64,000 nt of DNA, from the NCBI GenBank assembly GCA_900766185.1, contig CAAFUL010000085.1, positions 65,465 to 129,464 on the forward strand, written 5' to 3'. Position 1 is the first letter of the stretch. Each line of letters opens with the position of its first letter. The notes beneath the pieces are model-generated. The model was not told the origin of the DNA. It saw only the letters and a program-made list of their open reading frames with translations, and searched no databases. The position numbers were made by a program, and so were the translations under genes. Positions 8,462-58,459 of this stretch are shown here, piece by piece. This stretch comes from an uncultured Johnsonella sp. (lineage in GTDB: Bacteria > Bacillota > Clostridia > Lachnospirales > Lachnospiraceae).

Positions 8462-8748
8462 GAGTAGGAACTTAAGACTTTAGAATTAAAAACAGAGCAA
8501 GAAATTAGTAGATTGAACACATAAGATAGTAGTTTTATGCTTAGGTTTGGAAGTTATGAAGGTTTATGAAATAATGCTACAGGATATGAAAGTTAAAGAA
8601 ATGTAATTAAAATACCTTGCTTGTTTTTTATTAATATAGTATATTTTTAATTTATAATTATTTATGAAAAATATTGTGATAAGGCAGAAGCTTCACTTTA
8701 CAATATTTTGTAAATTATGCAGCACAAATAATACTACAAGGAGACAGT

Positions 8749-8949
8749 ATGGTTACAACTATAAAGGTAAACGGAATGATGTGTTCACATTGTAAAGCAA
8801 GTGTTGAAAAGGCAGTAAAAGCATTGGATAAAGTTAGCAAGGTTGAGGCTAATGTAGGTGAGAGAGAAGTTGTGGTTACACATGAAGATGATTTGAGTGT
8901 AGAAAAGATACATGAGGCAATTATAGCGGCAGGCTATGAGGTAATGTAA
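8749..8949 (+). CDS. copZ: copper chaperone CopZ (HMA domain)
   Basis: 66 aa with a GMMCSHC metal-binding motif and an HMA ferredoxin-like fold pattern. RBS aaggagac. Confidence 0.8.
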   Translation: MVTTIKVNGMMCSHCKASVEKAVKALDKVSKVEANVGEREVVVTHEDDLSVEKIHEAIIAAGYEVM

Positions 8950-9010
8950 AAATTTATCATATAAAAACCGTTAGCGGTCTTCAATTAGGGATTTTTAGTC
9001 TATGAAGAAA

Positions 9011-9046
9011 GGCACAACATACTACAATGTAGGTTATGCCTTTTTT
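9011..9046 (+). terminator. rho-independent terminator downstream of copZ
   Basis: Imperfect hairpin ggcacaacatactacaatgtaggttatgcc followed by tttttt. Confidence 0.45.
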
Positions 9047-9319
9047 CATGCTCTGACGAGATATTAACTGCACCGGTAAAGTTCCAATTCTTTTGGAAAG
9101 TAAGTGATAAAGAAAACGGATACATTTGAAAAATTGCTTTTCTTTATCTGTTAGCTTTAAAAGGGGTATCAAAAGGACATTCTTAAAAAGTAAAATAAAA
9201 TTCATCTGCAAAAGTTATAGATGGACCGGAGGGAGAGAATTTTTATCGAAATTATGCTATAATTATGCTATAAAACTGAGATGGATACACAAGGAGATGA
9301 AATAATATGACCTAATCAG

Positions 9320-9530
9320 AAGAAATAAAAAAATTAGTCAAAAATGCTTTCTATCACAGGAGATATTTGCTAGAGAATGTGGAGTGTTATTATCATCCAT
9401 CAATTACCGGGAAAGTGGAAAAACCAAGCCAAATATGTCTGCTATGAAAAAAAATCAAAGAATTCTGTGAGGCACAGGGAGTTGATTTTAATGCTTTAGA
9501 AATAGATTGGACTAAAAAATTGAAGGGATA
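9320..9530 (+). pseudogene. frameshifted remnant of an XRE-family HTH regulator
   Basis: Translation gives ...SQEIFARECGVLLSSINYRESGKTKPNMSAMKK / IKEFCEAQGVDFNALE across two frames with an internal stop. The pattern matches HTH_XRE (Cro/C1) proteins. No intact ORF remains. Confidence 0.4.
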
Positions 9531-9767
9531 AATAATATAATGACTAAGAAGAAAACTTATGAAAAATCATTTAATATAGATAGTATCTTATTTTCTTGTA
9601 GAGATCATTTGCGTGCTGAATGTAATTCAGGTTCATTTTTTGAAAAGCTTCTTTTATTCAAGGAGAAGTCGGAATAGGTATATCGGGCTTGGTTATCGGT
9701 TTCCTATTTAGTCCTTATGGGCTTTTGATGATAGGAGCAACAGTGATAGCGTTTATTTAATTGATAA

Positions 9768-10061
9768 ATGATAAGATTTCCTTTGAAACAATTAGCAAAA
9801 GATATTGATGAAAATAATCCTCCAAAAGGAAATGGATTTTCAGGAATTACATTAGCTTACAATGTTGAATATAAAGAAGATGTAGATACTGTAATTGAGT
9901 TAGTAAGAAAAGCAGGTGGAAAAATTGTAAAAGAGCCACAGGAAGTTTTCCGGGGTGGATATCATGCGTATTTTTCGGATTTAGATAGATACTACCGAGA
10001 AGTTTTATGGGGACCAAATTTTCAATTTGATGAAAATGGATTGCTGAAATTTTTAGGATAA
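9768..10061 (+). pseudogene. truncated VOC/glyoxalase-family protein (C-terminal module only)
   Basis: The 97-aa ORF contains only one beta-alpha-beta-beta-beta VOC module (GGKIVKEPQEVFRGGYHAYFSDLD). The N-terminal module expected for a ~125-aa VOC protein is missing. The upstream frame is closed. Confidence 0.45.
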
Positions 10062-10118
10062 ATAGGGAAAGAGTTACCATAAAGTAAGGAATATTCAAAT
10101 TTTGAGGAGGTAATCATA

Positions 10119-10433
10119 GTGAATGAATTTAATGAATTTGTTCGTGAGGCTTTTTCCGCAGCAGGTGATATTGTCATAAAATCCATGATGGGCGGATATC
10201 TTGTATACCTCAATGGCAGACTGATAGGTGATATTTGTGATAATGAACTGTTTCTGAAAAGAACGCCGACAGCTGATAAACTTCTTGCAGACTCTGAATT
10301 GCGTTATCCTTATGAAGGTTCAAAAACATTGATGCATGTATTCGACAGATTTGAGGATACGGATTTGATTACAGAACTACTGGAAGGTATGTATACGGAA
10401 CTGCCCGAAAAGAAACCCAAGAAAACTAAATGA
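10119..10433 (+). CDS. TfoX N-terminal-domain-like protein (104 aa)
   Basis: Motif KSMMGGYLVYLNGRLIGDICDNELFLK resembles the TfoX_N consensus (MGGYGLY..G..F..I....LYLK). RBS gaggagg. Confidence 0.5.
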   Translation: MNEFNEFVREAFSAAGDIVIKSMMGGYLVYLNGRLIGDICDNELFLKRTPTADKLLADSELRYPYEGSKTLMHVFDRFEDTDLITELLEGMYTELPEKKPKKTK

Positions 10434-10575
10434 GACAGACAAGCTTCAGTTTGTTGAACTTAGCAAGTTATAAGTTTATATGAGATGAAACCTATAAAAC
10501 TTGTACGAATATTGTAGGGTAGGAAAAGAAATATTCCTCTATACTAAAATAAACTCAAGGAAAGGGGGAAGCGAA

Positions 10576-11418
10576 GTGAATATTATCAAGTCGTTTAACA
10601 ATACGATTGATTATCTTGAAACAGTTCTTGATGATAAAATTGATGAAAAGAAAATAACTCAATTATCAGGATACTCTTATTCAATGTTCAGTCGCTTGTT
10701 TTCTATTCTAACCGAAACAACGCTCTCAGAATATTTAAGAAGCAGAAGATTAACAGAAGCTGCCTTTATATTAAGAGATACGGATGAAAAGATAATTGAT
10801 GTTGCCTTCAAATTTGGATATGAGTCATCAGATTCGTTTGGAACAGCTTTTAAGAATTTTCATGGATTTACTCCTTCAGAGGTAAGAAATGGGAAACCGT
10901 TTAAATTGGTATCACGAGTTCAATTAGCACTCAGTGTAAGAGGAGGAAGAAGTATGAATATTACAATTCAAAAGAAAAAAGCATTTACAGTTGCAGGTGT
11001 AAATGAACAAAACATCAGTTCATTGCAATGTCCGAGTATCTGGGGTAAGCTGTATGAAAAATATAGCCATGATGAACTTGCAAGTTTGGGAAACGGTCAA
11101 AATGTGGGTGTTTGTCATGATGTGGAAAACCCAAGTACAATAAACTATATGGCAGGCTATATTGTTATTGATGCAGAGAAAGCAAAAAGTATGGGATTAG
11201 ATGTTTTGGAAGTTGAAGAAGCAGAGTATGCCGTTGTAGAGTTAACAGGATCTGTTCCGGAGTGTATTCATAAGGGGTGGAAATATGCGATGGAAGTATT
11301 CTTTCCCGAGCATGGATATGTCCATTCAGGAAAACCCGACTTTGAATATTATTACGAAGGTGATATGGATAGCAAGGACTATAAAATGGAACTTTGGATT
11401 CCGATAACTAAAGCTTAA
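10576..11418 (+). CDS. AraC-family transcriptional regulator with a C-terminal GyrI-like effector-binding domain
   Basis: AraC-type HTH pair (LSGYSYSMFSRLF...SDSFGTAFKNFHGFTPSEVR), then a ~150-aa GyrI-like/Rob-C-like domain. Start chosen at the GTG (10576) preceded by aaagggggaa. The ORF track begins upstream at 10501. Confidence 0.75.
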   Translation: MNIIKSFNNTIDYLETVLDDKIDEKKITQLSGYSYSMFSRLFSILTETTLSEYLRSRRLTEAAFILRDTDEKIIDVAFKFGYESSDSFGTAFKNFHGFTPSEVRNGKPFKLVSRVQLALSVRGGRSMNITIQKKKAFTVAGVNEQNISSLQCPSIWGKLYEKYSHDELASLGNGQNVGVCHDVENPSTINYMAGYIVIDAEKAKSMGLDVLEVEEAEYAVVELTGSVPECIHKGWKYAMEVFFPEHGYVHSGKPDFEYYYEGDMDSKDYKMELWIPITKA

Positions 11419-11665
11419 AAACAGTTTGTCGAGCTGAATAAAACTGAATATCTGAATATATGTGACGATAGAAAGTAAAACATCTATCGTCTTTTCTTAT
11501 GCAAAAAATTAAAAAGAGTGGTGGTGTAAGAATTGGAATTTGATTATTTTCTATAACAGTGAATAAGGGAGATAAGTAGTACTATCATGATTTGAAAAAT
11601 ATTTCATAATATGACAATAGATATCAGGTTATTGTGATATAATAAATATAGGAGATGTTAAGACG

Positions 11666-12565
11666 ATGAAAGATAATAGGCTATTTAGGATACTGTATTA
11701 TATTTTAGAAAAAGGAAAAGTTACAGCAAGCGAACTTGCAGATAAATTTGAGGTATCAGTCAGAACAATTTATAGGGATATTGACTCTATCAGCAGTGCA
11801 GGTATTCCCATTTATGCGTTGCAAGGAAAGGGTGGCGGAATAGAAATTGCTGAAGATTTTGTTCTTAGTAAATCACTACTTTCTGAAAATGAAAAACAGC
11901 AAATTATGTCAGCTCTTAAGGGATTGGATAATACCGCAATACAGCATGAAAATGAGCTTCTAACAAAACTTTCCGCACTCTTTAAGATGAAAAGTACCAA
12001 CTGGATAGAAGTTGATTTTAATAATTGGCAAAACAATAAGCTGTATGAAAAAGCTTTTGACGGTATCAAATCCGCAATTTTGAGTAAAAACATTATTTCA
12101 TTCACATATTTTAGCAGCAATGAAAAAGAAACAAGCAGAAGTGTTAAACCTGTGAGATTACTTTTCAAGAGTCAAGACTGGTATCTATATGCTTTCTGTT
12201 TACTCAGAAATGATTTTAGATATTTCAAGTTATCTCGGATAAAGAATTTAGAGATTCATACTGAAAAGTTTAATGACAGCTTTGAAGATGTAATTCTAAA
12301 AAAAGAAATGCCACACGAGAATACAGTGCATATAAAAGTTAAGTTTGACCGTAAAGTTGCTTTCAGAGTATATGATGAATTAAACAAAGAAATCACTGAA
12401 GATGATGAAGGAAATTTATATTCTGAAATAGAAATACCAAATGATTATAACCTATACAATTATATTTTTTCTTTCGGGGATGGAGCAGAAGTATTGGAGC
12501 CTAAAGAGATACGAATACGGATTAAAGAAATAATAAATAAAATGGCAGAAAAATATATAACTTGA
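11666..12565 (+). CDS. YafY-family transcriptional regulator (HTH_11 - WYL - WCX architecture)
   Basis: N-terminal DeoR/HTH_11-like helix (ASELADKFEVSVRTIYRDIDSISSAGIPI). Central WYL motif (QDWYLYAFCLLRNDFRYFKLSRI). C-terminal extension. RBS taggagatg. Confidence 0.8.
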   Translation: MKDNRLFRILYYILEKGKVTASELADKFEVSVRTIYRDIDSISSAGIPIYALQGKGGGIEIAEDFVLSKSLLSENEKQQIMSALKGLDNTAIQHENELLTKLSALFKMKSTNWIEVDFNNWQNNKLYEKAFDGIKSAILSKNIISFTYFSSNEKETSRSVKPVRLLFKSQDWYLYAFCLLRNDFRYFKLSRIKNLEIHTEKFNDSFEDVILKKEMPHENTVHIKVKFDRKVAFRVYDELNKEITEDDEGNLYSEIEIPNDYNLYNYIFSFGDGAEVLEPKEIRIRIKEIINKMAEKYIT

Positions 12566-36509: not shown

Positions 36510-37205
36510 ATGATAGGTATTATAGGAGCAATGGAAGAGGAGATAACGAATTTAAAATCACACATGCAGGTGGATGAGGTACAGACCATAGCCGGTATGT
36601 CTTTTTTTAAGGGAGCTGTAAAAGGAACCAAGCTTGTACTTGTGCGTTCAGGCATAGGAAAGGTAAATGCCGGAATATGCACCCAAATACTTGCAAGTGT
36701 ATACGGAGTGGATACTGTGATCAATACAGGTATAGCCGGCTCCCTTAATGCCGATATTGATATAGGAGATATAGTTGTATCTACAAGTCTGGTACAATAT
36801 GATGTTGACGCCAGGAATTTCGGATATAAACTTGGTGAAATACCGAGAATGAATATTGTAGAGTTTCCGGCAGATAAATATCTTATAGATAAGACACAAA
36901 GTGTATTTGATAGTCTAGGTCTTGGCATAAAGCTTTACAAGGGCATGGTAGCCACAGGGGATAAGTTTGTATCTGAGGATAGTTTAAAAGCTGAGATTAT
37001 CAGTAATTTCCATGCTTACTGTGTTGAAATGGAGGGAGCAGCCATAGCACAGGCGGCAATGCTTAACAACATGGCTTGTGTAGTTATAAGGGCTATATCG
37101 GATAAGGCGGATAACAGTGCCGATGTTGATTACAGAAGCTTTGAAGCAAAAGCCATAGAAAATATGTCAAAAATCAGTTTGGCACTGGTTGACAGCTTAA
37201 AATAA
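36510..37205 (+). CDS. mtnN: 5'-methylthioadenosine/S-adenosylhomocysteine nucleosidase
   Basis: MIGIIGAMEEEI N-terminus and the PNP/UDP fold. Confidence 0.85.
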   Translation: MIGIIGAMEEEITNLKSHMQVDEVQTIAGMSFFKGAVKGTKLVLVRSGIGKVNAGICTQILASVYGVDTVINTGIAGSLNADIDIGDIVVSTSLVQYDVDARNFGYKLGEIPRMNIVEFPADKYLIDKTQSVFDSLGLGIKLYKGMVATGDKFVSEDSLKAEIISNFHAYCVEMEGAAIAQAAMLNNMACVVIRAISDKADNSADVDYRSFEAKAIENMSKISLALVDSLK

Positions 37206-46583: not shown

Positions 46584-46631
46584 AAAAAAAGGTGTTGTAG
46601 AAAGCTTGAATCAGCTCTACAACACCTTTTT
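46584..46631. terminator. bidirectional rho-independent terminator between the convergent histidine kinase and 3D-domain genes
   Basis: A-run, then ggtgttgtaga...tctacaacacc stem, then T-run. Confidence 0.6.
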
Positions 46632-46653
46632 AGTTCTTATCTTTAGTGAACTA

Positions 46654-46799
46654 CCCATAGTCTAAAGCCTATGGGCTTCCTGCTTCGCTGACCTCGCAAC
46701 CTACTATCTCCACAGGCGTTAATTCGGGCAGTCCCTGCCCTATTGTTTTTTTCTTATACTACCTTAACCCACCGTCTAAAGCCAGTGGGTTAAGGTAGT
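46654..46799 (+). ncRNA. candidate structured RNA or repeat: two hairpins with near-identical GTCTAAAGCC loops flanking an intrinsic-terminator-like hairpin
   Basis: cccatagTCTAAAGCctatggg (46654-46675). gggcagtccctgccc followed by tattgttttttt (46726-46752). 15-bp stem actaccttaacccac-CGTCTAAAGCCA-gtgggttaaggtagt (46758-46799). No ORF. Confidence 0.3.
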
Positions 46800-46813
46800 A
46801 TTATTTCAATAAT

Positions 46814-47323
46814 TTATTGCTCAATTAAATACACATCAAAATACTGAACTCCATGAGCCATAGCCTCAGGGTATGAAGCATAGAATACATCTACCGTATT
46901 GCCTCTTACTGCACTTCCCTTATCTTCAACAGTATATACCGTAGGGCTGTCTCCAAGTCTTATCTTAGATCCCTGAGGAAGCACGGACCAGTCGGCAGCA
47001 ACGGTATGTGCAGCCTTTGGAATAACTCCGCTGGCAGTTTTTTGAGGATTAAGCTCAGTGCTGTCATTGTAACCTGTTGTTTTAAATTTACCTATATATT
47101 TTCCTTTAGCTTTTAATCTTGCTTCTTCGGCGAGCCTTGCTTCTTCAGCAAGTCTTGCGGCTTCTTTTTCCTTTAACTCAAGTGCATATCCTGGACCTGA
47201 CTTAGCATTTATCTCCTTTTGTTTTTGACTGTCTACGGCTACAGCTGCAAAAGCAGGCACATAGGTGCAAAGTGTAAACACGAAAGATAGCGCAACAATG
47301 CAGGATAAAATTCGTCTAACCAT
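46814..47323 (-). CDS. secreted 3D-domain protein (MltA-like lytic transglycosylase-type fold, cell-wall associated)
   Basis: Signal peptide. A/E/R-rich linker with LAEEARLAEEARL repeats. C-terminal 3D domain (AADWSVLPQGSKIRL...VEDKGSAVRGNTVDVF). Confidence 0.7.
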   Translation of the reverse strand: MVRRILSCIVALSFVFTLCTYVPAFAAVAVDSQKQKEINAKSGPGYALELKEKEAARLAEEARLAEEARLKAKGKYIGKFKTTGYNDSTELNPQKTASGVIPKAAHTVAADWSVLPQGSKIRLGDSPTVYTVEDKGSAVRGNTVDVFYASYPEAMAHGVQYFDVYLIEQ

Positions 47324-47481: not shown

Positions 47482-47847
47482 TTATTTTTTATATTTTGAA
47501 GTATCGTAATCCTCAACTACTATCTTATCCACATCTTGAAAAGGAGCAAGAGTGGAAACCATTTTGATAGGTTTATCATAGTTATTCACACAGTAATGCA
47601 CTTCGCCCGGCTCAATGTGGATAAAATCTCCAGCTTTTAAATGGTTAACCACATCGTCAACCACTATGTCGATCTCACCCTCAAGAATATAGAAATTTTC
47701 TTCCATAACATTATGATAATGGGCTTCGAAGTCCTGTCCCGGCATAAACTGAACCACTGCAAAGTTACTTCTGGGGCCCCTCATAAGGTATTTAGGACCG
47801 CTGTCTTTGAATCTGTATTCTCTTTCATTCTCATTTAATAAAAACAT
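47482..47847 (-). CDS. metal-binding cupin-2 protein encoded in an operon with lsrK (candidate LsrG replacement)
   Basis: Cupin motif 1 GQDFEAHYHNVMEENFYILEGE and motif 2 GDFIHIEPGEVHYCVN. Starts 1 nt after the lsrK stop on the same strand. Confidence 0.7.
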   Translation of the reverse strand: MFLLNENEREYRFKDSGPKYLMRGPRSNFAVVQFMPGQDFEAHYHNVMEENFYILEGEIDIVVDDVVNHLKAGDFIHIEPGEVHYCVNNYDKPIKMVSTLAPFQDVDKIVVEDYDTSKYKK

Positions 47848-47848
47848 A

Positions 47849-49414
47849 TTACCTCCTATTACTTCCGGGTGCAGCCCACATATGGTTTGTTAAGCCTGCA
47901 TCTGCTATTTCAAGCTCTTTGGCATACCATTTTTTCCATGAGGCAAACACATCACTGTAAACTGCATAATTTTTTATATCCGGCTTATAAACGGCACTTA
48001 TTTTCACCAGTTTTTTTGCCGTTTCAGACACATTATTATATATACCTACGCCCACACCTGCCAGTATAGCGGCACCAAGGGCTGTAGCTTCTTTAACTTC
48101 CGGTACTCTTACTTCCAAGCCTGTAGTGTCGGCTAAGATCTGACACCAAAGAGGGCTTTTTGAAGCTCCTGAAGCAAAGGTTATAAACTTAGGTTTATTT
48201 CCTGTTTGCTCGTATACAAGCTCTATATGTCCACGAGTAACCAAAGCGGCATTTTCAAGTATTGCTCTGTAGAAAGTATACTTGTTGAATTTCTCAGGAT
48301 CTAAACTGAAATTTGAAAAAGTGGGAGCGGCATGTCTCCAGCTTGGGTAGTCCATAATATCTGAAAAAGCACACTTCATACCATAGCAACCTATAGGAAC
48401 TTTACTTGCTTTTTCATTCATCAAGTCATACACATCCTTGCCTGATTTTTTTGCTTCTTCTTTTTCATATTCACAAAAGGCATCTCTGAACCAACGCATG
48501 ATAAGTCCGGGATTAAAAGCTATTGCCTCGTATTGCCAAATATTTTTAACTGCATGACAATTAACTCTGACCTTAGACTTATCGTTAATTACAGGAGATG
48601 AGGTATTGTACTCATACTGCCAAAAACTTCCGCCAAATACGGCAGCTTCAAAATCATCAACCACTCCTACTCCTATACAACCAAGTTGAGCATCTCCTCC
48701 GCCTACAACTATCAAAGTTCCTTCTTTAAGACCGGTCTCAAGAGCCGCATCTTTACTTACTTTTGAAAACAAACTTCCAGACTCAACTATTTTAGGAAAT
48801 ATATCGGGGTTTATGTCAAACTTTTTTGCAATATCAAGATCCCAGTCCCTTAATTTCAAATTAACCAAACCAGTAGTGGAGGCATTGGACGGCTCACAGC
48901 AAAACTCACCGCTTAACTTATATATAAGCCAATCATTAAACATAGTAAGTTTACTTATCTTTTTATATATCCCCGGCTCTTTGTTTTTGATCCAAAGCAG
49001 ACGGGGAATAGCATCGAGCGCACTGGTCTGACCGGTCTTTTTGTAGACTTCAAGCTCAAGCTTCGGATTTTGGGTAATGATTTCTTCGGCTTCATCCTTT
49101 GCTCGTGAGTCTACATTGGCACATGCCCATATTTCCTTGCCCTCATCATCATAAAGTACTATACCTTCACGCATACAGGTAGTAGATATGGCGGCAATTT
49201 CACCGGGGTCGGCACCTGTTTGTGTTATAACATCTTTAATACATTCCTTAGTTAGTTCCCAGTTGTTGACCCAGTCAAAGTTCATACTGCCGGGGTATTT
49301 GTCCTCTTTGTGATACCATTCCCTTGAAACACAGCCCAGCTGATGACCTTCAAGGTCAAAAAGCACAGCCCTTACACTTCCGGTTCCGGCATCAATAGCC
49401 ATCAGTGTTTTCAT
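47849..49414 (-). CDS. lsrK: autoinducer-2 kinase LsrK (FGGY carbohydrate kinase family)
   Basis: N-terminus AIDAGTGSVRAVLFDLEGHQL...PGSMNFDWVNNWEL closely parallels E. coli LsrK ([20 protein letters not shown]...PGSMEFDLNKNW). 521 aa. Confidence 0.8.
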   Translation of the reverse strand: MKTLMAIDAGTGSVRAVLFDLEGHQLGCVSREWYHKEDKYPGSMNFDWVNNWELTKECIKDVITQTGADPGEIAAISTTCMREGIVLYDDEGKEIWACANVDSRAKDEAEEIITQNPKLELEVYKKTGQTSALDAIPRLLWIKNKEPGIYKKISKLTMFNDWLIYKLSGEFCCEPSNASTTGLVNLKLRDWDLDIAKKFDINPDIFPKIVESGSLFSKVSKDAALETGLKEGTLIVVGGGDAQLGCIGVGVVDDFEAAVFGGSFWQYEYNTSSPVINDKSKVRVNCHAVKNIWQYEAIAFNPGLIMRWFRDAFCEYEKEEAKKSGKDVYDLMNEKASKVPIGCYGMKCAFSDIMDYPSWRHAAPTFSNFSLDPEKFNKYTFYRAILENAALVTRGHIELVYEQTGNKPKFITFASGASKSPLWCQILADTTGLEVRVPEVKEATALGAAILAGVGVGIYNNVSETAKKLVKISAVYKPDIKNYAVYSDVFASWKKWYAKELEIADAGLTNHMWAAPGSNRR

Positions 49415-50349
49415 GATTCATACCCCTCCAGATCCACTAATTTTGCAGCGGTTTCCTCATCGGTAATAAGTACATCAAGATATCCTCCTACCAAGGCTGC
49501 CTTGATGATATCCAGCTTATGCATACCGCCGGCTATTCCTATAACATTATTAAGAGCCTTTAATTGGAACAAAGAGGTGCTTATAAGTCTGTCTTCAAGC
49601 ATACTTTGTATAGGAGTACCGTCTCTATCCACAAAGTGCGTAAGTATATCACCTACAGCTCCCTGCATGGAAAGATAAGCAAAGTCATTAGCTGAGAGTA
49701 TACCGTTTTTTAATATGGTAGCCGAACTGTCCATTGATCCGAGTCCTATGATGGAAAATGAGGCAAGCTCAGTCATTCTGCTGATTTCTATAACACTAGG
49801 CTCATTTAACAAAGCACGGCATACATACTTGTCTGAGAGCATTAGCGGACTGGGGTATAGGTAAAGTTTTGCATTAAATATATTGGACTGTGTATTAGGC
49901 AGATAGTAGCTTACACCTCCGGTCAAAGAAACTACTGAAATAGGTACTTCAGTAGTTCTTGCAAGGTGGTTGAGTACCTTGGAAGGAGTATCACCGTATC
50001 CCATATTGATATACATAGGCTCCTGCATTTCCATCATACGATCTGAAATATAAGTGGCAGCTGATTGAGCAAGTACATCATTCATTCTTGAAGGTTCTTT
50101 TGGAGTAGGTATTACAAAAACATCTTCAAGTTTATACTTATCAAAAATAAGTTTTTCCAGAAGTCTTTTCTTTTCCTTGTTTTGAGCTATCCTAAATTGA
50201 ATAATTCCGTTTTGTTTAGCAAAATCAAGAAGCTTAACAACTCTCATTCGTGAAATACCGAGTTTTTCTGCTATAGCCTGTTGAGTTAAGTTCTCAATAT
50301 AATAATGCCAAGCAACCTTAGTTATTATCTCATCTTTATAATCAGTCAT
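49411..50349 (-). CDS. lsrR: SorC-family transcriptional repressor LsrR
   Basis: N-terminal HTH (QQAIAEKLGISRMRVVKLL) and a C-terminal sugar-phosphate-binding domain. Overlaps the lsrK start by 4 nt. Divergent from lsrA. Confidence 0.75.
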   Translation of the reverse strand: MTDYKDEIITKVAWHYYIENLTQQAIAEKLGISRMRVVKLLDFAKQNGIIQFRIAQNKEKKRLLEKLIFDKYKLEDVFVIPTPKEPSRMNDVLAQSAATYISDRMMEMQEPMYINMGYGDTPSKVLNHLARTTEVPISVVSLTGGVSYYLPNTQSNIFNAKLYLYPSPLMLSDKYVCRALLNEPSVIEISRMTELASFSIIGLGSMDSSATILKNGILSANDFAYLSMQGAVGDILTHFVDRDGTPIQSMLEDRLISTSLFQLKALNNVIGIAGGMHKLDIIKAALVGGYLDVLITDEETAAKLVDLEGYES

Positions 50350-50482
50350 ATTCCCTCCTTATTAATATAAATAAAGTTTTTAAACATTAAATTTATTTTA
50401 GAACAAAATATCATATTTATAGTATAAATGTCAAACTTAAATATGCATAAACTTTATTAGCAATATATAGTAAAAATGCTAC

Positions 50483-50511
50483 TTGAATATTTTTGACAAA
50501 TAATATATAAT
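50483..50511 (+). promoter_or_regulatory. putative sigma-A promoter of the lsrACDBF operon in the lsrR-lsrA divergent region
   Basis: TTGAAT, then a 17-nt spacer, then TATAAT, about 100 nt upstream of the lsrA ATG. Confidence 0.4.
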
Positions 50512-50609
50512 CTTTTACAAAAGTTTCAAGATGAACAAATGATATAGGAAAAAGGTGTGAAAAATAGGTTATTTTTCAGTTGAGATAATTATTATAGGAG
50601 GATTGGTTT

Positions 50610-52115
50610 ATGAATAATCTCCTTTCAGTGAGCGCTATTACAAAACAATTCGGTTTAAACAAAGTTTTAAAAGGTATAGATTTGGAAGTTAATGAGGGTG
50701 AAGTCTTATCTTTAATAGGAGGTAACGGTGCCGGAAAATCAACCTTAATGAAGATCATTATGGGTATATATCCGCCGGATACGGGATCTATAAGTGTAAA
50801 AGGTGAGAAGATACACACATTTAAGCCTTCTGTGGCGCTTGCAAAGGGTATATATATGGTTCCTCAAGAACCCATGCTTTTTCCGAATATGAGTGTAAGA
50901 GAAAATATACTTATAGGTTTTAGAGAAAGTCAGGCAGTACTTAATAAAAGACTTGATAATATTATAAATGAGATAGGCTGGAAGTTTGATCTTGAACGAA
51001 AGGCACTTAGTTTATCCATAGCGGAACAGCAACTTGTAGAGCTTTTAAGAGGTCTTATGCGTGAAAGTAAGGTACTTATACTTGATGAACCTACTTCATC
51101 ACTGACCTTTGAAGAGGTGGAGTCCTTATTTAAAGTAGTGGAAGACTTAAAGAAAAAGGGCATAGGTATAATATACATAACTCACAGACTTACGGAAGTA
51201 TTTACTATAAGTACTCATGTGGCGATAATGAGAGACGGAGTTATAACCGTACAGGGTAAGATATCCGAATTTACAAAAGATATGCTTATAAAAGGCTTGC
51301 TCCCGCCAAATATAGAAGAGTTTGAAGAAAAAAGCGAGAGTGAATCCAAGATAGAATATGACAAATTAAAACCGGTATTCAGCCTTGAAAATTACAGCGG
51401 ATACGGATTTAAGGATGTAAGCTTAGAGGTATATCCCGGAGAAATACTTGGAATTGCAGGGCTTGTAGGTGCAGGCAGAACAGAGCTTGCCACAACAATT
51501 TTCGGAATGGAAAAGGTGCTGTCGGGTAAGGCGTATCTTGAGGGGAAAGATATAACCGGTATCTCTACAAAAGAGGCTATTGCTGTAGGAATCAATTATG
51601 TACCTGAAGACAGAAGATTAAACGGACTTTTCGGAATAAGCTCCGTAGCTGCTAATACTACATCATCACTTTTATCAAATAATTTTTTAGGTTCGTTTTG
51701 GCTTAACAGAAAAAAAGAAAAAGAAATTACTGCAAAATATGTAAATGATTTTAAAACCAAAATAACCGGTCAAGATCAGGAAACTGGAAGTTTATCGGGT
51801 GGAAATCAACAAAAAGTTATAATAGGCAGGATACTTGCCACTGCACCTAAGCTTATTATTTTGGATGAGCCTACAAGAGGTATAGATGCGGCTGCAAGAT
51901 CCGATGTGTATAGCATTATAAAGGAATTAAAAGCAGCCGGTGCGGCAGTACTGCTTATTTCATCCGACATGGAAGAGATAGTGGAGCTTTCAGACAGAGC
52001 CGTAGTTATGTTTCAGGGACATATCAAGGGAGAGCTGGCAAAAGAAGAGATATCACAGGCATCTTTAATGAATGCTTCCTTTAATGTAGTAAATACAAAA
52101 AGCAAAGGAGTTTAG
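50610..52115 (+). CDS. lsrA: AI-2 ABC transporter ATP-binding protein (tandem ABC domains)
   Basis: 501 aa with two Walker A motifs (GGNGAGKST, GLVGAGRTE) and two signature motifs. Sugar-importer type, like RbsA. Confidence 0.8.
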   Translation: MNNLLSVSAITKQFGLNKVLKGIDLEVNEGEVLSLIGGNGAGKSTLMKIIMGIYPPDTGSISVKGEKIHTFKPSVALAKGIYMVPQEPMLFPNMSVRENILIGFRESQAVLNKRLDNIINEIGWKFDLERKALSLSIAEQQLVELLRGLMRESKVLILDEPTSSLTFEEVESLFKVVEDLKKKGIGIIYITHRLTEVFTISTHVAIMRDGVITVQGKISEFTKDMLIKGLLPPNIEEFEEKSESESKIEYDKLKPVFSLENYSGYGFKDVSLEVYPGEILGIAGLVGAGRTELATTIFGMEKVLSGKAYLEGKDITGISTKEAIAVGINYVPEDRRLNGLFGISSVAANTTSSLLSNNFLGSFWLNRKKEKEITAKYVNDFKTKITGQDQETGSLSGGNQQKVIIGRILATAPKLIILDEPTRGIDAAARSDVYSIIKELKAAGAAVLLISSDMEEIVELSDRAVVMFQGHIKGELAKEEISQASLMNASFNVVNTKSKGV

Positions 52116-52116
52116 T

Positions 52117-53145
52117 ATGCTGAATAGATTAATTAGAATAAGGGAAACAGGGAGCTTATTATTCCTTATAGTGTTGATACTGGGAGTCGGAATAAAAAAT
52201 CCGTCATTCTTACAGCCTACTTCCTTGCTTAATATATTAAATGACTCCGTAGTATTTGTATTACTTTCTGTAGGAATTGCTTTTGTAATTCTGACAGGTG
52301 AGATAGATGTTTCAATAGGTGCGGTACTGGGGCTTAGCGCTGCTGTAGGAGGTACTATATTAAGAGACGGTGGCAATTTATTTGTTGCAATATTCGCAGC
52401 AATACTCATAGGTGCGTTTATAGGTTTTTTTAACGGAATAGGAGTTACTTATTTGGGCATACCGTCTTTGATTTTTACATTGGGTACAAACGGACTTATA
52501 AGAGGACTTGTTTATGTATACACCAAGGGTGAGTGGGTAGAAAATTTGCCGGCATACTTTACTAACGCCGCTACTCAAAGACTGTTTTTTAAAGAAGGTA
52601 TAACTTATTTTTACTTGGTTACAATTATTGCCGTGTGTGTAATTTTTTATATGACCAATAACATAAGAGTCGGAAGGTATTTTAAAGCTATAGGTGATAA
52701 TATGCAAGGTGCCGCCCTGGTCGGTATACCGACTAAAGAAGTAAAGGTCTTGTCCTATGTACTTTGCGGAGTTTTTGCGGCAGTTGCAGGTATGCTATAT
52801 TCATCAAGAGTAGGCTTTATTACACCTATAGCCGGAAATGGTTACGAGATGAAGGCGATAGCTGCCTGTGTTATAGGCGGTATAGCACTTACGGGAGGCC
52901 AGGGAAGTGTACTGGGAGCTACCATAGGAGCTACTATAATGTCTTCTATAAGCAGGAGTTTGGTGTTCTTAGGTTTTTCATCGGACTATGACAATACGAT
53001 TACCGGAATTATACTTATAGTAATAGTTGTTGTAACTACAGTAACTCAAAACAGAGAGATTATTAAAAATAAGCGAGAGGTACTTTTAGCAAGAACATCA
53101 GGCGGTGATACAGTATCTAAGATAGGGGAGAGTAACAATGAATAA
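52117..53145 (+). CDS. lsrC: AI-2 ABC transporter permease
   Basis: Polytopic RbsC/BPD_transp_2-like permease. Translationally coupled to lsrA. Confidence 0.7.
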   Translation: MLNRLIRIRETGSLLFLIVLILGVGIKNPSFLQPTSLLNILNDSVVFVLLSVGIAFVILTGEIDVSIGAVLGLSAAVGGTILRDGGNLFVAIFAAILIGAFIGFFNGIGVTYLGIPSLIFTLGTNGLIRGLVYVYTKGEWVENLPAYFTNAATQRLFFKEGITYFYLVTIIAVCVIFYMTNNIRVGRYFKAIGDNMQGAALVGIPTKEVKVLSYVLCGVFAAVAGMLYSSRVGFITPIAGNGYEMKAIAACVIGGIALTGGQGSVLGATIGATIMSSISRSLVFLGFSSDYDNTITGIILIVIVVVTTVTQNREIIKNKREVLLARTSGGDTVSKIGESNNE

Positions 53146-54154
53146 AGAAAAAACAAGCTTGCTTAAAAAAGCATCCTCTTGGGAATATGTACTCGTACTG
53201 CTTTTAATTTTTGAAATAGTAGTATTTGCAACTAAGAATCCTAAATTTCTTATGCCGAGAGTTTTATTCGGAAGTCTCAATGATATAATTTCAATATGTA
53301 TTATATCATTATTTGTTACCTTTGTTATGATTACCGGAGGTATAGATATACAGGCAGGTGCATTGGTAGGACTTACTTCCATAGTACTTGGCGTTTCATG
53401 GCAGGATTTCGGTATTAATATTTGGCTTGCCGCCTTTTTGGGAATTGTCGTTTCGGCGCTTTGCGGAGCTTTATCGGGATTTTTTGTAGCCTATTGCAAT
53501 GTGCAGCCCATGGTGGTAACTCTGGGAGGAAGTTTCCTCTATTCGGGGCTTGCCCTGCTTGTGTCCAATGTTTCCGCTACGGAAAGTTATAAAGGAATAA
53601 GCGGTTTCCCGGAAAGTTTTACGCAGCTTTCAAAATACAGATTTGGCGGAGTTTTACCTTTGCAGGTATTAATATTCCTGGTATTGGCAATTATCGCCTT
53701 TCTATTGTTAAATAAAACTGTATATGGAAGAAAGATATTTCTTATAGGAGTTAATAAGAATGCAGCCGAGTATTCGGGTATTAATACAAGGCTTATTACC
53801 TTAAGTACCTACGTACTTTCTGCAATCAGTGCTTCTATAGCGGGTATTATACTTACTTCTTATCTGGGTACCGCAAAGTCGGATATAGGAGCAACTTTAA
53901 CGCTTCCTATCATTACTGCGGTAGTGCTTGGCGGAACACTGTCTACAGGAGGAAAAGGTTCGGTAGTAGGAACGGCTTTGGCAGCGATAATTATAGGAGT
54001 ACTTAAGTTCGGTCTGCCGCTCAGCTTTAAAGTTCCGCAGCAATATCTTGATATACCGGTAGGTGCTTTACTTTTAATAGTTGTTATAGGAAGGGCAATT
54101 ATTTCAAGTCCGGCTTTTAAGAAGTATATAAATAAGTTAAAAAAGGGTGATTAA
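53138..54154 (+). CDS. lsrD: AI-2 ABC transporter permease
   Basis: Second RbsC-like permease. Overlaps lsrC by 8 nt. Confidence 0.7.
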   Translation: MNKEKTSLLKKASSWEYVLVLLLIFEIVVFATKNPKFLMPRVLFGSLNDIISICIISLFVTFVMITGGIDIQAGALVGLTSIVLGVSWQDFGINIWLAAFLGIVVSALCGALSGFFVAYCNVQPMVVTLGGSFLYSGLALLVSNVSATESYKGISGFPESFTQLSKYRFGGVLPLQVLIFLVLAIIAFLLLNKTVYGRKIFLIGVNKNAAEYSGINTRLITLSTYVLSAISASIAGIILTSYLGTAKSDIGATLTLPIITAVVLGGTLSTGGKGSVVGTALAAIIIGVLKFGLPLSFKVPQQYLDIPVGALLLIVVIGRAIISSPAFKKYINKLKKGD

Positions 54155-54205
54155 TCACCTTAAAAATATAGGCAGTGAGAACTGCTAAAAAGGGAGGTAC
54201 TTTTA

Positions 54206-55369
54206 ATGAAAAGGAACTTATTAACATTAACCGCATTGGGTCTTGCACTTCTTAGCTTAAGTGCTTGTAGTGCTAAAACTACAGAGCAGACCACAACCGC
54301 TGCAAACGATTCAAGTGCACAGTCAGGTGAGAGCAGTCAAGCGGCTTCTTCACAGGCGGCAGGTGCAGATGTTAAGTCTGTACAGGGGCTTACTATAGCT
54401 TTTGTTCCTAAGCTTACCGGTAATGCTTTCTTTGAGTCAGCTAACAAAGGTGCTCAAAAGTATGCTAAGGAGTGGGGATTTACAGTAGATTATCAAGGCT
54501 CTCCCAATGCTTCCGTTGCAGATGAGGTTCAGGTTATCAACAATGCGGCAGCTTCAGGAGTTGACGGTATCTGTGTATCTTCGGTAGATGCTACAGGTCT
54601 TGACTCAGCACTTAAAGATGCGGCAGCTATGGGCGTAACAATAGGTACATGGGATTCAGACGTGTCAGACTCTGCAAGAACTATTATGGTATCTCAGGGT
54701 ACACCTGAAATACTCGGACAGATGCTTATAGACATGGGTACGGATGCTCTTAAGAAGAGAGGCAAGGATCCTGAAAAGGATGCTATTAAGTATTGCTGGC
54801 ACTATTCACAGGCTACGGTTGCAGATCAGAACTCATGGCAGGTAGCGGGTGAGGCTTATATTAAAGAAAAGTATCCTAACTGGGTCAATGTTGCACCAAG
54901 CAACTACTATTCAGAGCAGGATGCGGAGAAGGCTGTGTCTATAGGTGCATCAATACTTGAAGCACATTCGGATATAGACTTAATTATCTGTAACGACTCT
55001 ACAGCACTTCCGGGACAGTGCAAGGCTGCTCAGAATGCAGGTCTTTCAAAGAACGATGTAACTATAACAGGATTTGCTTCACCTATGTCAATCAAGGACT
55101 ATGCCGAGGCTGATGTTATTGAAGAGTGGGGACTTTGGGACTGCGGTATACAAGGAGCACTTGGTTGCTATATGACAGCTTATATAGCTGCAGGCAATAC
55201 TGTTAAGGTAGGAGATAAGATCAATGTACCTTCTATCGGTGAAGTGGAAGTATTGGCAAACGATGTTCTGGTACCGGGAGCTAAGACGGCAGAGAGCAAC
55301 AACGGTGTTGTGCTTCTTCCTGAAAGACTTACATTTACAAAAGAAAATGTAAATGACTACGATTATTAA
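54206..55369 (+). CDS. lsrB: AI-2-binding periplasmic-type substrate-binding lipoprotein LsrB
   Basis: Lipobox LSLSAC. The core IAFVPKLTGNAFFESANKGAQ...VQVINNAAASGVDGICVSSVD...TIGTWDSD aligns with E. coli LsrB ([21 protein letters not shown]...[20 protein letters not shown]...ILTWDSD). Long S/A/Q-rich linker after the lipid anchor. Confidence 0.75.
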   Translation: MKRNLLTLTALGLALLSLSACSAKTTEQTTTAANDSSAQSGESSQAASSQAAGADVKSVQGLTIAFVPKLTGNAFFESANKGAQKYAKEWGFTVDYQGSPNASVADEVQVINNAAASGVDGICVSSVDATGLDSALKDAAAMGVTIGTWDSDVSDSARTIMVSQGTPEILGQMLIDMGTDALKKRGKDPEKDAIKYCWHYSQATVADQNSWQVAGEAYIKEKYPNWVNVAPSNYYSEQDAEKAVSIGASILEAHSDIDLIICNDSTALPGQCKAAQNAGLSKNDVTITGFASPMSIKDYAEADVIEEWGLWDCGIQGALGCYMTAYIAAGNTVKVGDKINVPSIGEVEVLANDVLVPGAKTAESNNGVVLLPERLTFTKENVNDYDY

Positions 55370-55418
55370 AATTTATCTTTTATAATGACTTAAACATCAT
55401 TGTAATATACAGAAAGGT

Positions 55419-56315
55419 TTGGTTAAGATTATGGCAGATTTAGATAACTTAAAGGTAGCGAAGAATTATTATTTAGATGTACCTTTTTCAAATGATAAAG
55501 GTTTTTATGTTAAAGGTGCCAATTCGCTTGATTGGGGCATGAAGAAACATCTTTCCAATATATTTAATCCTGAAAGCAAAAATACAGTGATGTTTGCTTT
55601 TGATCATGGTTATTTTATGGGTTCAACAGCAGGTCTTGAAAGGCTGGACTTGATAATTCCAAGGGTGTTACCTAACATAGATGTACTTATGGGTACAAGA
55701 GGAGCTATAAGAAGCTGTGTAGACCCGGCTTTGGCAGCCGGCAAGGGAATTGCCCTAAGAGCTACATCAGGTTCTTCTATGGTACAGGATGACTTAAGTC
55801 ATGAGATACTTGCAGTAGATGCTGAAGAAGCTTGCAGAATGAATGCGGATTGTCTTGCAGTACAGACCTTTATAGGAGGAGACGGTCAGCTTTCAAGTTT
55901 GGAGAATTTATCAAAGGCGGTTAATTTCGGAGTAAGATACTCTATTCCTGTAATGGGAGTAGTTGCTGTAGGTAAGGAAATGGAAAGAACTCCTAAATTT
56001 TTCAAGCTGGCAACAAGAATACTTGCAGAACTTGGAGCCAACATCATAAAGACCTATTACTGTGAAGACTTTGAAGAAATTGTTGCAGCCTGCCCTGTAC
56101 CTATAGTAGTGGCAGGAGGCAAGAAACTTGCAGAGGACGAGGCGCTTACCCTTGCTTATCAGTCTATAAGAGATGGTGCCAACGGTGTTGATATGGGAAG
56201 AAATATCTTCCAGTCAAACAACCCTGAAGCAATGAGCAAGGCGATAAATAAGATCGTTCATGAGAAGTTCACTGATAAGGAAGCCTTTGAGTATTTCAAA
56301 GAATTAACTAAGTAA
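55419..56315 (+). CDS. lsrF: 3-hydroxy-5-phosphonooxypentane-2,4-dione thiolase LsrF (class I aldolase fold)
   Basis: The run GANSLDWGMKKHLSNIFNPESKNTVMFAFDHGYFMGSTAGLERLD aligns closely with E. coli LsrF. Confidence 0.8.
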   Translation: MVKIMADLDNLKVAKNYYLDVPFSNDKGFYVKGANSLDWGMKKHLSNIFNPESKNTVMFAFDHGYFMGSTAGLERLDLIIPRVLPNIDVLMGTRGAIRSCVDPALAAGKGIALRATSGSSMVQDDLSHEILAVDAEEACRMNADCLAVQTFIGGDGQLSSLENLSKAVNFGVRYSIPVMGVVAVGKEMERTPKFFKLATRILAELGANIIKTYYCEDFEEIVAACPVPIVVAGGKKLAEDEALTLAYQSIRDGANGVDMGRNIFQSNNPEAMSKAINKIVHEKFTDKEAFEYFKELTK

Positions 56316-56689
56316 CAAAAATAATAAAAAGGACTGTTATATTAAAAAACACATTGGAATCTGATTTTAATTAAAAGAAAGGATATCTTGTGTATTTATA
56401 TTAATAAACAGTCCTTTATTTTTTTAAGTTAGATCAGGCTTACAAACAAAAAAATACAAAAGCTGATAAATCAATTTATAGAAGTATTATAAGTGTTTTT
56501 CTTGAATTTAGCAGTGCTTTTTAAGGCTTTGAATACAAGCGGTTTTGCAGTGGAGCCGTATTTTTTATATGCAAATAAATTACATTTTCTTTTCTTTTTT
56601 AAAACACAAAAAAAACAAATTTTTGTACTATTTTTACTTAAGTTTATATGCTATACTTAAAATCATATTAATGTATATACAGGTGAGTT

Positions 56690-58459
56690 ATGGACAGGGA
56701 ACATTTAAATAAAAGTACAAGAAATTCTAAATATAGATCGAATAATTCTTCCTCGAGAGGCAGTTACCGTCCGAGAAGAAAATATAAAAATACATTTAAT
56801 TATCCTATGATTGCAGCTGCAGCAGCAGCGGTCATACTTATACTTATAATAATAATATGGGTAGTAAGTGCTGTTATGGGAGCGCTAAAGCCTAAAAAAG
56901 AAAAAACGGCAGAAACCACAACGGAAAGCGTATCGGTATCCGAGCTTAGCAAGGCTGTTATGATTGATAACATAGTTATAACAGGACTTTCAAAAGTACA
57001 GGCAAAAGAGACCATAATGAAAAACTACGCTTGGGATATGAAGGCAACTTTGGAAGGAAAGACCGAGGATAATACCTATGAAGTTAAAAATCTTATAGAA
57101 TCACGCATAGATGATATACTTAATGAGGTTTACGGAGGGACTCCGAAAGAAACCTATAGCTTAGATTTAAGCAATATGGATGATGCCATTAAGGGAGAAA
57201 TCGCAAATATGGCAAAAAAATGGAATGTAGCTCCTAAAAACGGATCTATAGCAGGCTTTGACAAAGCCAGCGGTTCATTTATATATGATGGAGAAGCTTC
57301 AGGAACAAAAATAGATGAAGATACATTGTTTAATGATATAAAGACAGCCATAGAGCAAAAAAACTTCAAGATAAATATAAATGTAAAGTCCCAAAAGGTT
57401 GATGCTGAGATCAGCGAAGCCAAGGCAAAGGAAATGTACAAAGTAATAGGTACATTTACAACTACAACTACGACCAATAAGGATAGAAATACCAATATCG
57501 GTCTTGCGGTAAGTGCTTTAGACGGACGCATACTTGCACCGGGAGAAGAGTTTTCTTTTAATAACACGACCGGAAACAGAACCTTGGAAAGAGGTTATAA
57601 GCCGGCAGGTGCCTACCTTAACGGTGTTTTGGTGGAAGAGCCCGGAGGAGGTGTATGTCAGGTGTCATCCACACTGTATAATGCGGTTGTATTTTCAGGC
57701 TTACAGACTACCGAAAGACACGCACACTCATTTGAGCCTTCTTATGTAACTCCCGGAGAAGATGCTATGGTAAGCTATGACGGATATGCAGGACCTGACA
57801 TGAAGTTTGTAAACAGCTCCGATACCGCTATAGCTATAAGAGCCAAATTAGTTGATCAAAAACTTACAGTATCGATAGTGGGTATACCGATACTTAAAGA
57901 AGGCGAAAAGATAAGTATGAGTTCCAAGAAGATGTCTGAGTATGAAAGCCCGCAAACCGTATATGAAGAAGACCCCAATATGGCAACCGGAGTGGAGCAG
58001 ACTATTCAAAAGGGCACAAAGGGAAGCAGATGGATCACAAATATTGTAAAAAAAGAAGGAGATAAGGTAATATCTGATGAGTTCTTGCACAACAGTACTT
58101 ATAAGGGAAAGCCTACTATAATTAAAAGAAATTCATCGGGAAGTTCTGTAAAGCTTGGAGGCACAAGCAGTGCCGCCTCAAGTGAAGTATCCTTATCTGA
58201 GTCAAGTACGGAAAGTGCGGAAAGCACGGCTCATTCTTCAACAGCTGCGGCAACGGAGGGCAGTACTGCAAAGTCAAGTGAAACTACCAAGGCTAAGGAA
58301 AGTACGAAAGCCAAAGAAAGCACTAAGGCTAAGGAGAGTACCAAAGAAAGTACTAAGGAAAGCAGCAAAGAAAGTACTGCTGCCGAGACTACCGCTCCGG
58401 CTACACAAGCACCAACTACACAGGACTCAGGCTTTATAGAAGCTAAACCTACTTCTTAG
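56690..58459 (+). CDS. VanW-family protein with a G5-like domain and a C-terminal Ser/Thr/Lys-rich tandem-repeat tail
   Basis: Basic N-terminus plus TM. VanW core (GEEFSFNNTTGNRTLERGYKPAGAYLNGVLVEEPGGGVCQVSSTLYNAV). C-terminal KAKESTKAKESTKAKEST repeats. Confidence 0.8.
   Translation: MDREHLNKSTRNSKYRSNNSSSRGSYRPRRKYKNTFNYPMIAAAAAAVILILIIIIWVVSAVMGALKPKKEKTAETTTESVSVSELSKAVMIDNIVITGLSKVQAKETIMKNYAWDMKATLEGKTEDNTYEVKNLIESRIDDILNEVYGGTPKETYSLDLSNMDDAIKGEIANMAKKWNVAPKNGSIAGFDKASGSFIYDGEASGTKIDEDTLFNDIKTAIEQKNFKININVKSQKVDAEISEAKAKEMYKVIGTFTTTTTTNKDRNTNIGLAVSALDGRILAPGEEFSFNNTTGNRTLERGYKPAGAYLNGVLVEEPGGGVCQVSSTLYNAVVFSGLQTTERHAHSFEPSYVTPGEDAMVSYDGYAGPDMKFVNSSDTAIAIRAKLVDQKLTVSIVGIPILKEGEKISMSSKKMSEYESPQTVYEEDPNMATGVEQTIQKGTKGSRWITNIVKKEGDKVISDEFLHNSTYKGKPTIIKRNSSGSSVKLGGTSSAASSEVSLSESSTESAESTAHSSTAAATEGSTAKSSETTKAKESTKAKESTKAKESTKESTKESSKESTAAETTAPATQAPTTQDSGFIEAKPTS
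58285..58380 (+). repeat. 15-nt coding tandem repeat (AKEST/KEST units) within the VanW-family gene
   Basis: Reiterated aaggctaaggaaagtacg / aaagccaaagaaagcact / aaggctaaggagagtacc / aaagaaagtactaaggaaagc units. Confidence 0.5.

Follow-up and report, generated by a model that had tools for sequence, protein, structure and literature searches.

The 64-kb stretch of DNA analysed here (contig CAAFUL010000085.1, the window in what follows) carries, between positions 47482 and 56315, eight genes that very probably form a functional Lsr-type system for the uptake and processing of autoinducer-2 (AI-2), of the clostridial class with a noncanonical LsrB receptor, in a Johnsonella-like member of the Lachnospiraceae. 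The open reading frame (ORF) listing places lsrR, lsrK and a small cupin gene on the minus strand and lsrA-C-D-B-F on the plus strand. The initial annotation had named seven of these genes and placed them where we find them, with lsrRK divergent from lsrACDBF, but its description of the locus as complete does not hold, since LsrG was not found (a tblastn search with E. coli LsrG gives no match at E≤10 in the window) and the conserved eighth gene, the cupin, had been overlooked within the interval. We propose, at a probability that we put at roughly 0.45, that this cupin is the isomerase converting phosphorylated 4,5-dihydroxy-2,3-pentanedione (P-DPD) to 3-hydroxy-5-phosphonooxypentane-2,4-dione (P-HPD) in most lsr systems outside the Proteobacteria, a non-homologous and metal-dependent analogue of LsrG, with E. 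coli as the exception and Salmonella keeping both proteins.

A conserved cupin coupled to lsrK

The cupin gene (47482–47847, minus strand) encodes 121 residues that match the Cupin_2 family (PF07883, 68 bits), while no specific NCBIfam family matches the protein. Its AGGAGG ribosome-binding site lies inside the last codons of lsrK and its start is 1 nt past the lsrK stop; the gene is translationally coupled to lsrK. The arrangement is general among related loci, which we assembled from 80 species, each over up to 21.5 kb: the contig continues past lsrK in 78, and in all 78 the next gene 3' of lsrK is the cupin. These loci span the Lachnospiraceae, Oscillospiraceae, Clostridium, Christensenellales, Treponema and Chloroflexi, and a search that started from cupin homologues found the eight-gene block also in Anaerobiospirillum (Gammaproteobacteria), whose LsrB is 76% identical to that of the window, and in a metagenome-assembled genome (MAG) labelled Planctomycetes. 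Median identity to the window proteins is 72.5% for the cupin, 72.9% for LsrF, 62.1% for LsrK, 62% for LsrA and LsrB, and 51–58% for LsrC, LsrD and LsrR.

The AlphaFold (AF2) model of the cupin, with a predicted local distance difference test score (pLDDT) of 86 and a predicted template modelling (TM) score (pTM) of 0.81, has the β-barrel cupin fold and resembles small single-domain cupins, among them KdgF, putative sugar-phosphate isomerases and the phosphomannose isomerases of Thermococcus. All four classical cupin metal ligands (H43, H45, E50 and H84) are unchanged across 30 close homologues, and homologues of 42–62% identity from Salmonella, Bacillus, Lacticaseibacillus and Deinococcus keep them. 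With His/His/Glu/His ligands on a modelled β-barrel, the protein is by prediction a Cupin_2 metalloenzyme. The N-terminal 27 residues, which include the invariant R12, K19 and Y20, are specific to the lsr-linked family. The best PDB sequence match is again to the Thermococcus phosphomannose isomerases (E 2.4e-10); these (7ZVY, 7ZVM) and KdgF (5FPZ, 5FQ0) share the single-domain fold and the His/His/Glu/His motif at TM-scores of 0.67–0.79, but are only 16–28% identical to the cupin and act on sugar phosphates or on the keto forms of sugar acids. The cupin has no PF03992 match, and its β-barrel is not the ferredoxin-like ABM fold of LsrG, so that if it does the job of LsrG it does so as an analogue and not as a member of the LsrG family.

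Earlier work had already drawn attention to this gene. Quan and Bentley (2012) described an Lsr-associated ‘mannose-6-phosphate isomerase’ that is always beside lsrK in Salmonella, the B. cereus group and Spirochaeta smaragdinae, cited evidence for its membership in the Salmonella LsrR regulon, and proposed ‘a possible AI-2-P processing role’, AI-2-P being phospho-AI-2. In published Salmonella transcriptomes the expression of STM4071, annotated as hypothetical, changes together with that of the lsr genes, and by gene order STM4071 would be the cupin. We found no report of a functional characterisation of the cupin in the literature searched. Its adjacency to lsrK and its possible role in AI-2-P processing are thus already known; the novelty would lie in the specific reaction and in the near-complementarity with LsrG.

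Distribution of LsrG and the cupin across lsr loci

When the 80 related loci were searched for LsrG by tblastn, only chance-level matches were obtained (E 2.9–8.3). A census of a small set of lsr loci fetched from several lineages divides them into three kinds. LsrG occurs without the cupin in E. coli, Yersinia, Photorhabdus, Morganella, S. meliloti and Roseicitreum; both occur in Salmonella, where lsrK is immediately followed by the cupin and lsrF by lsrG; and the cupin occurs without LsrG in the window and all clostridial-type loci, on an L. paracasei plasmid and in Bacillus. No locus in the census has neither. Across the ~90 Firmicutes-type loci examined, the cupin is beside lsrK in every one and LsrG in none. 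A separate survey of LsrG homologues, the best 120 of which all belong to the Enterobacterales, could not show absence from Firmicutes. The distribution of the two genes is the pattern expected of non-orthologous displacement.

Comparison with the better known systems illustrates the exchange. E. coli K-12 (lsrRK/lsrACDBFG) has the same divergent layout, seven families and gene order as the window at 31–50% identity, but in E. coli lsrF is followed by LsrG, no cupin stands behind lsrK, and LsrB, with P220 and A222, is periplasmic and not a lipoprotein. Salmonella enterica has a homologous cupin (46% identity) directly after lsrK; it differs from the window in also having LsrG and LsrE, and in its canonical LsrB. 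The Bacillus cereus group is Gram-positive, has the cupin (43% identical) and has no ABM/LsrG gene in the locus, but its genes run lsrR-lsrK-cupin-lsrF with lsrACDB divergent, and its LsrB is of the canonical KDDQPA type. A B. thuringiensis-like Bacillus has this order; its LsrB is canonical and its locus lacks an ABM-domain ORF. B. cereus has a bare lsrK-cupin-lsrF module.

The loci outside these groups vary further. In S. meliloti (L110, a pSymB-like plasmid, 4636–12315) lsrG directly follows lsrK and a class II aldolase/adducin gene replaces LsrF, while on a Roseicitreum plasmid (L111) consecutive genes encode RbsD/FucU, an ABM protein and a class II aldolase; with an aldolase in the place of LsrF in these alphaproteobacterial loci, terminal phospho-AI-2 processing seems to be lineage-variable. 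A Deinococcus psychrotolerans plasmid (L101, 8412–10381) and an Epsilonproteobacteria MAG (L104/L105) hold an lsrK-cupin pair on its own, neither an Lsr transporter nor LsrR or LsrF being encoded within 10 kb; the conserved core module would appear to be this pair of kinase and cupin.

LsrF matches on plasmids of Parabacteroides, Aureibacter, Shinella and Sagittula were dropped from the census, as they lie in other sugar contexts. On plasmids of Bacteroidota (L097, L098) and Alphaproteobacteria (L099, L100) a gene annotated ‘lsrF’ has DhaK/DhaL or other sugar genes as neighbours and no further Lsr parts, and the annotation ‘lsrF, 3-hydroxy-5-phosphonooxypentane-2,4-dione thiolase’ may have been over-extended to LsrF-family aldolases of other pathways.

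A proposed pathway and the possible role of the cupin

In the pathway that we envisage, the LsrB lipoprotein would bind R-THMF, a cyclic form of AI-2, outside the cell, LsrA, LsrC and LsrD would import it, and LsrK would phosphorylate linear DPD to P-DPD, which would release the SorC-type LsrR from operators in the 260-bp control region and so induce both operons. The step from P-DPD to P-HPD, catalysed by LsrG in E. coli, would be supplied by the metal-dependent cupin, which, in the manner of cupin phosphosugar isomerases, would exchange the positions of the keto and hydroxy groups by way of an enediol stabilised by the metal. LsrF would then cleave P-HPD with coenzyme A to dihydroxyacetone phosphate and acetyl-CoA by way of a Schiff-base lysine, K211; this residue aligns with K203 of E. 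coli LsrF, the Schiff-base lysine there. It is established that LsrF requires as its substrate the P-HPD made by LsrG (Marques et al. 2011). We favour an LsrG-like isomerase role for the cupin because of the displacement pattern, because LsrF needs P-HPD, and because the transposition of α-hydroxyketones is typical of metal-dependent cupin isomerases. Oxygenase chemistry was also considered: Clostridium and Treponema, both among the carriers, are strict-anaerobe lineages, which argues against it, and an oxygenase role is unlikely.

Several observations weigh against the proposal. Salmonella retains both LsrG and the cupin, and its lsrG mutants reportedly still show a phenotype (Taga et al. 2003), in which case the cupin would not be a full substitute there. 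The sampled LsrG-bearing loci are all proteobacterial, so the near-complementary pattern may reflect few evolutionary events. The cupin fold is functionally promiscuous, and the lsrK-cupin pairs without LsrF nearby, in Deinococcus and an Epsilonproteobacterium, would be explained at least equally well by a function linked to the kinase. The window covers 64 kb of the genome, and an unlinked LsrG or another isomerase may lie beyond it. As to the identity of the locus itself, five of its proteins score under the NCBIfam cut-offs: LsrA with 555 bits (cut-off 586), LsrB with 295 (384), LsrR with 187 (486), LsrC with 234.6 and LsrD with 258.7.

A kinase-tied role could take the form of a cupin that acts before or with LsrK, accelerating in the manner of KdgF the conversion of cyclic R-THMF, by ring opening or dehydration, into linear DPD, the LsrK substrate, the isomerisation of P-DPD then being spontaneous or carried out by LsrF or by an unlinked enzyme. 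We consider this unlikely, though it is the strongest of the alternatives. It would suit the constant coupling of the cupin to lsrK and not to lsrF, the lone lsrK-cupin pairs just mentioned, the KdgF structures among the top fold matches and the presence of the cupin beside LsrG in Salmonella; but it would leave more than 85 LsrG-less loci, each with a conserved LsrF, without a source of substrate for that enzyme, and it does not explain why the cupin is absent from most LsrG-bearing loci. Moreover RbsD/FucU, a candidate for the ring-opening step, adjoins the cupin in L. paracasei and LsrG in Roseicitreum, which suggests that the cupin and LsrG are positioned as equivalents. The P-DPD isomerase remains the role that we prefer for the cupin.

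Residence of the block in its lineage

From its flanks, the initial annotation had read the locus as an acquired block. Base composition does not bear this out: compared with 35 other long ORFs in the window, the lsr genes have a GC content of 0.391 against 0.366 (p=0.14) and a GC content at third codon positions (GC3) of 0.324 against 0.320 (p=0.75), and codon-usage distance does not separate the two sets either (p=0.33). No direct repeats were found bracketing the lsr block, nor was an integrase or transposase found among those flanking ORFs that carry an annotation. It is surrounded by core genes, encoding MurG, MtnN, glucose-6-phosphate isomerase (PGI), a ROK glucokinase, TadA, a two-component system and pyruvate:ferredoxin oxidoreductase (PFOR), and a sister species in a Human Microbiome Project assembly has Lsr proteins 88–97% identical to those of the window within the same flanks. 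A recently acquired genomic island is thus improbable in our view, even though the same eight-gene block is found across phyla (Anaerobiospirillum, Treponema, Chloroflexi) and also on a conjugative L. paracasei plasmid between insertion sequence (IS) elements. Such spread shows that the system moves horizontally over evolutionary time; the block is resident in this lineage, though the system has clearly moved between phyla in the past.

The L. paracasei plasmid, pMGB0747-1 (L095, 3084–11765), carries the whole cupin-type lsr block, with an LsrB of the KDDQNS type described below and rbsD directly after the cupin. The plasmid is conjugative and the block is flanked by IS30 and IS5 transposases, making it a plausible vehicle for the horizontal spread of lsr.

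Gene identities and the AI-2 receptor

For all seven named proteins the best NCBIfam match is the corresponding E. coli Lsr equivalog, LsrK (713.8 bits, cut-off 528) and LsrF (391.8 bits, cut-off 297) scoring above the equivalog cut-offs, and the Pfam domains are consistent with the assignments. Identity to the E. coli K-12 proteins (NC_000913) is 49% for LsrK, 31% for LsrR, 44% for LsrA, 38% for LsrC, 40% for LsrD, 40% for LsrB and 50% for LsrF. The nearly residue-for-residue agreement with E. coli that had been reported for the LsrF motif FDHGYF...GLERLD, the LsrK N-terminus and the LsrB core was confirmed.

On the minus strand, lsrK (47849–49414; NF008187) encodes an AI-2 (DPD) kinase of the FGGY family whose closest solved structure is 5YA0 (E 2.4e-160). 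It overlaps by 4 nt with lsrR (49411–50349), which encodes an LsrR-like SorC-family repressor with a PF04198 sugar-binding domain; E. coli LsrR (4GO1, E 1.5e-41) is its closest solved structure, ahead of DeoR, and we assign it from context because its NCBIfam score is under the cut-off. On the plus strand, lsrA (50610–52115; best match NF011967) encodes an ATPase with two ABC domains, visible as two ABC_tran stretches, followed by the permease genes lsrC (52117–53145; best match NF011961, LsrC) and lsrD (53138–54154; best match NF011612, LsrD), these three being separated by 1-nt gaps or short overlaps. The importer genes lsrACD sit with lsrB (54206–55369), in the gene order of E. coli. The last gene, lsrF (55419–56315; NF006081), encodes the P-HPD thiolase, closest to 3GLC (E 1.9e-86). 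Its ORF begins with TTG at 55419, but the ATG at 55431 is the more likely start; it gives a protein of 294 residues beginning MADLDNLK (compare MADLDDIK in E. coli); contigs of the same species also call lsrF as 294 residues.

The LsrB lipoprotein has an LSAC lipobox, with the lipobox cysteine at position 21, followed by a Ser/Ala/Gln-rich tether. We aligned it with E. coli LsrB and with 58 LsrBs from the related loci. Of the six residues that contact AI-2, four are canonical (K69, D150, D207 and Q208, equivalent to E. coli K35, D116, D166 and Q167), and P220 and A222 of E. coli are replaced by N263 and S265, which leaves the strict canonical set incomplete. The resulting KDDQNS signature is found in 58/58 of the LsrBs from related loci and also matches that of 6DSP, the C. 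saccharobutylicum LsrB, with which the window protein shares 68% identity across 328 residues (E 2.4e-155); the next solved relatives are rhamnose binders at E 1e-21. The C. saccharobutylicum system thus has the same six LsrB contact residues, with N/S at positions 220 and 222, and both organisms are Clostridia; the family differs, that of the window being the Lachnospiraceae. The 6DSP protein is reportedly the noncanonical clostridial AI-2 receptor (Torcato et al. 2019, J Biol Chem), and the literature lists it among the AI-2 receptors. Because the N/S pair equals that of 6DSP, it does not amount to the loss of AI-2-binding residues by which, according to the initial annotation, a binder of ribose or another sugar would be recognised; by homology and by this pair, the window LsrB belongs with the noncanonical clostridial receptors.

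That the locus instead imports and catabolises another pentose-like sugar, its Lsr names reflecting homology only, is the least probable of the explanations that we considered: LsrA, LsrB, LsrC, LsrD and LsrR do fall under their cut-offs and are matched by ribose, rhamnose and related models too, and in Bacteroidota and Alphaproteobacteria genes annotated lsrF do stand in sugar contexts other than lsr, but LsrK and LsrF are above the equivalog cut-offs, LsrB is far closer to 6DSP, with all six contact positions the same, than to the rhamnose binders, and the architecture is that of E. coli gene for gene, LsrG excepted. The organism would thus be expected to take up AI-2, and the locus is a genuine further case, well preserved, of the known clostridial lsr class.

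The divergent control region

The two operons are separated by a 260-bp control region (50350–50609) with a GC content of 0.20. A promoter scan gives a candidate lsrA promoter, TTGAAT-17-TATAAT, at 50483–50511 on the plus strand, and a candidate lsrR promoter with TTGACA at 50434 on the minus strand. The palindromic motif AACANNTGTT, allowing at most one mismatch, is found in 81/83 lsrR-lsrA spacers, those of E. coli and Salmonella included, with a mean of 2.2 per spacer compared with 0.31 in shuffled sequences. In the window it takes the form AACAAATGAT at 50534–50543, just downstream of the lsrA -10 element, a candidate LsrR operator. At the other end of the plus-strand operon, a long imperfect hairpin followed by U7 (56329–56428, plus strand; -26.9 kcal/mol, z = -4.5 against shuffles) is the likely lsrACDBF terminator.

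Flanking regions

Of the flanking features that the initial annotation had considered signs of acquisition, the 3D-domain gene (PF06725) and the AT-rich spacer after lsrF are both present, but the spacer, with a GC content of 0.227, is like the other intergenic regions of the window (0.20–0.24). What had been called an unusual terminator region is the spacer (46588–46805) towards which the histidine-kinase and 3D-domain genes converge; it contains four stable hairpins (-81.7 kcal/mol for a fold of 241 nt, z = -7.2). Those at 46654–46675 and 46768–46789 share the form CCCA-NN-GTCTAAAGCC-NN-TGGG, which is found nowhere else in the window and, among the fetched loci, only in contigs of the same species. 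No Rfam family reaches its gathering score in the window, and the hairpin region gives chance-level matches only.

The 3D-domain gene has a tandem 18-nt repeat at 47118–47153, presumably encoding its EARLAEEARL stretch, and downstream of the locus a VanW/G5 protein (56690–58459) terminates in a repeat rich in Ser, Thr and Lys (KAKEST...). The two would seem to be proteins of the cell surface with no connection to lsr. Some 10 kb upstream of the lsr genes lies MtnN/Pfs (36510–37205, plus strand; NF004079, 243 bits against a cut-off of 169), the methylthioadenosine/S-adenosylhomocysteine nucleosidase of the step before LuxS in AI-2 synthesis; luxS itself was found neither in the 64-kb window nor in any fetched locus.

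Significance

The nearest genome locus is that of an uncultured Johnsonella sp. MAG, with an LsrK 94% identical to that of the window, and the exact cupin protein of the window occurs in 375 blocks of an assembly index, Human Microbiome Project assemblies included; contigs listed for it come from ENA metagenome assemblies. The view, taken in the initial annotation, that lsr systems are best known from enterics and the B. cereus group is outdated, as Lachnospiraceae are already reported to carry lsr: in a 2025 survey they make up more than half of the gut Firmicutes species with a functional lsrB, so that a locus of this kind is here expected and not surprising. The gene content predicts removal of AI-2 from the community by an abundant Johnsonella-like oral member of the Lachnospiraceae, which fits the published surveys and adds little that is new. 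The one under-studied feature of this otherwise ordinary locus is the cupin found where LsrG is missing. The textbook route of phospho-AI-2 processing needs LsrG, while Firmicutes-type loci instead encode a highly conserved and uncharacterised cupin beside lsrK. Closing this gap would correct genome-based predictions of which bacteria degrade AI-2 fully, and if the cupin is indeed the isomerase, E. coli would represent the exceptional case and not the general one.

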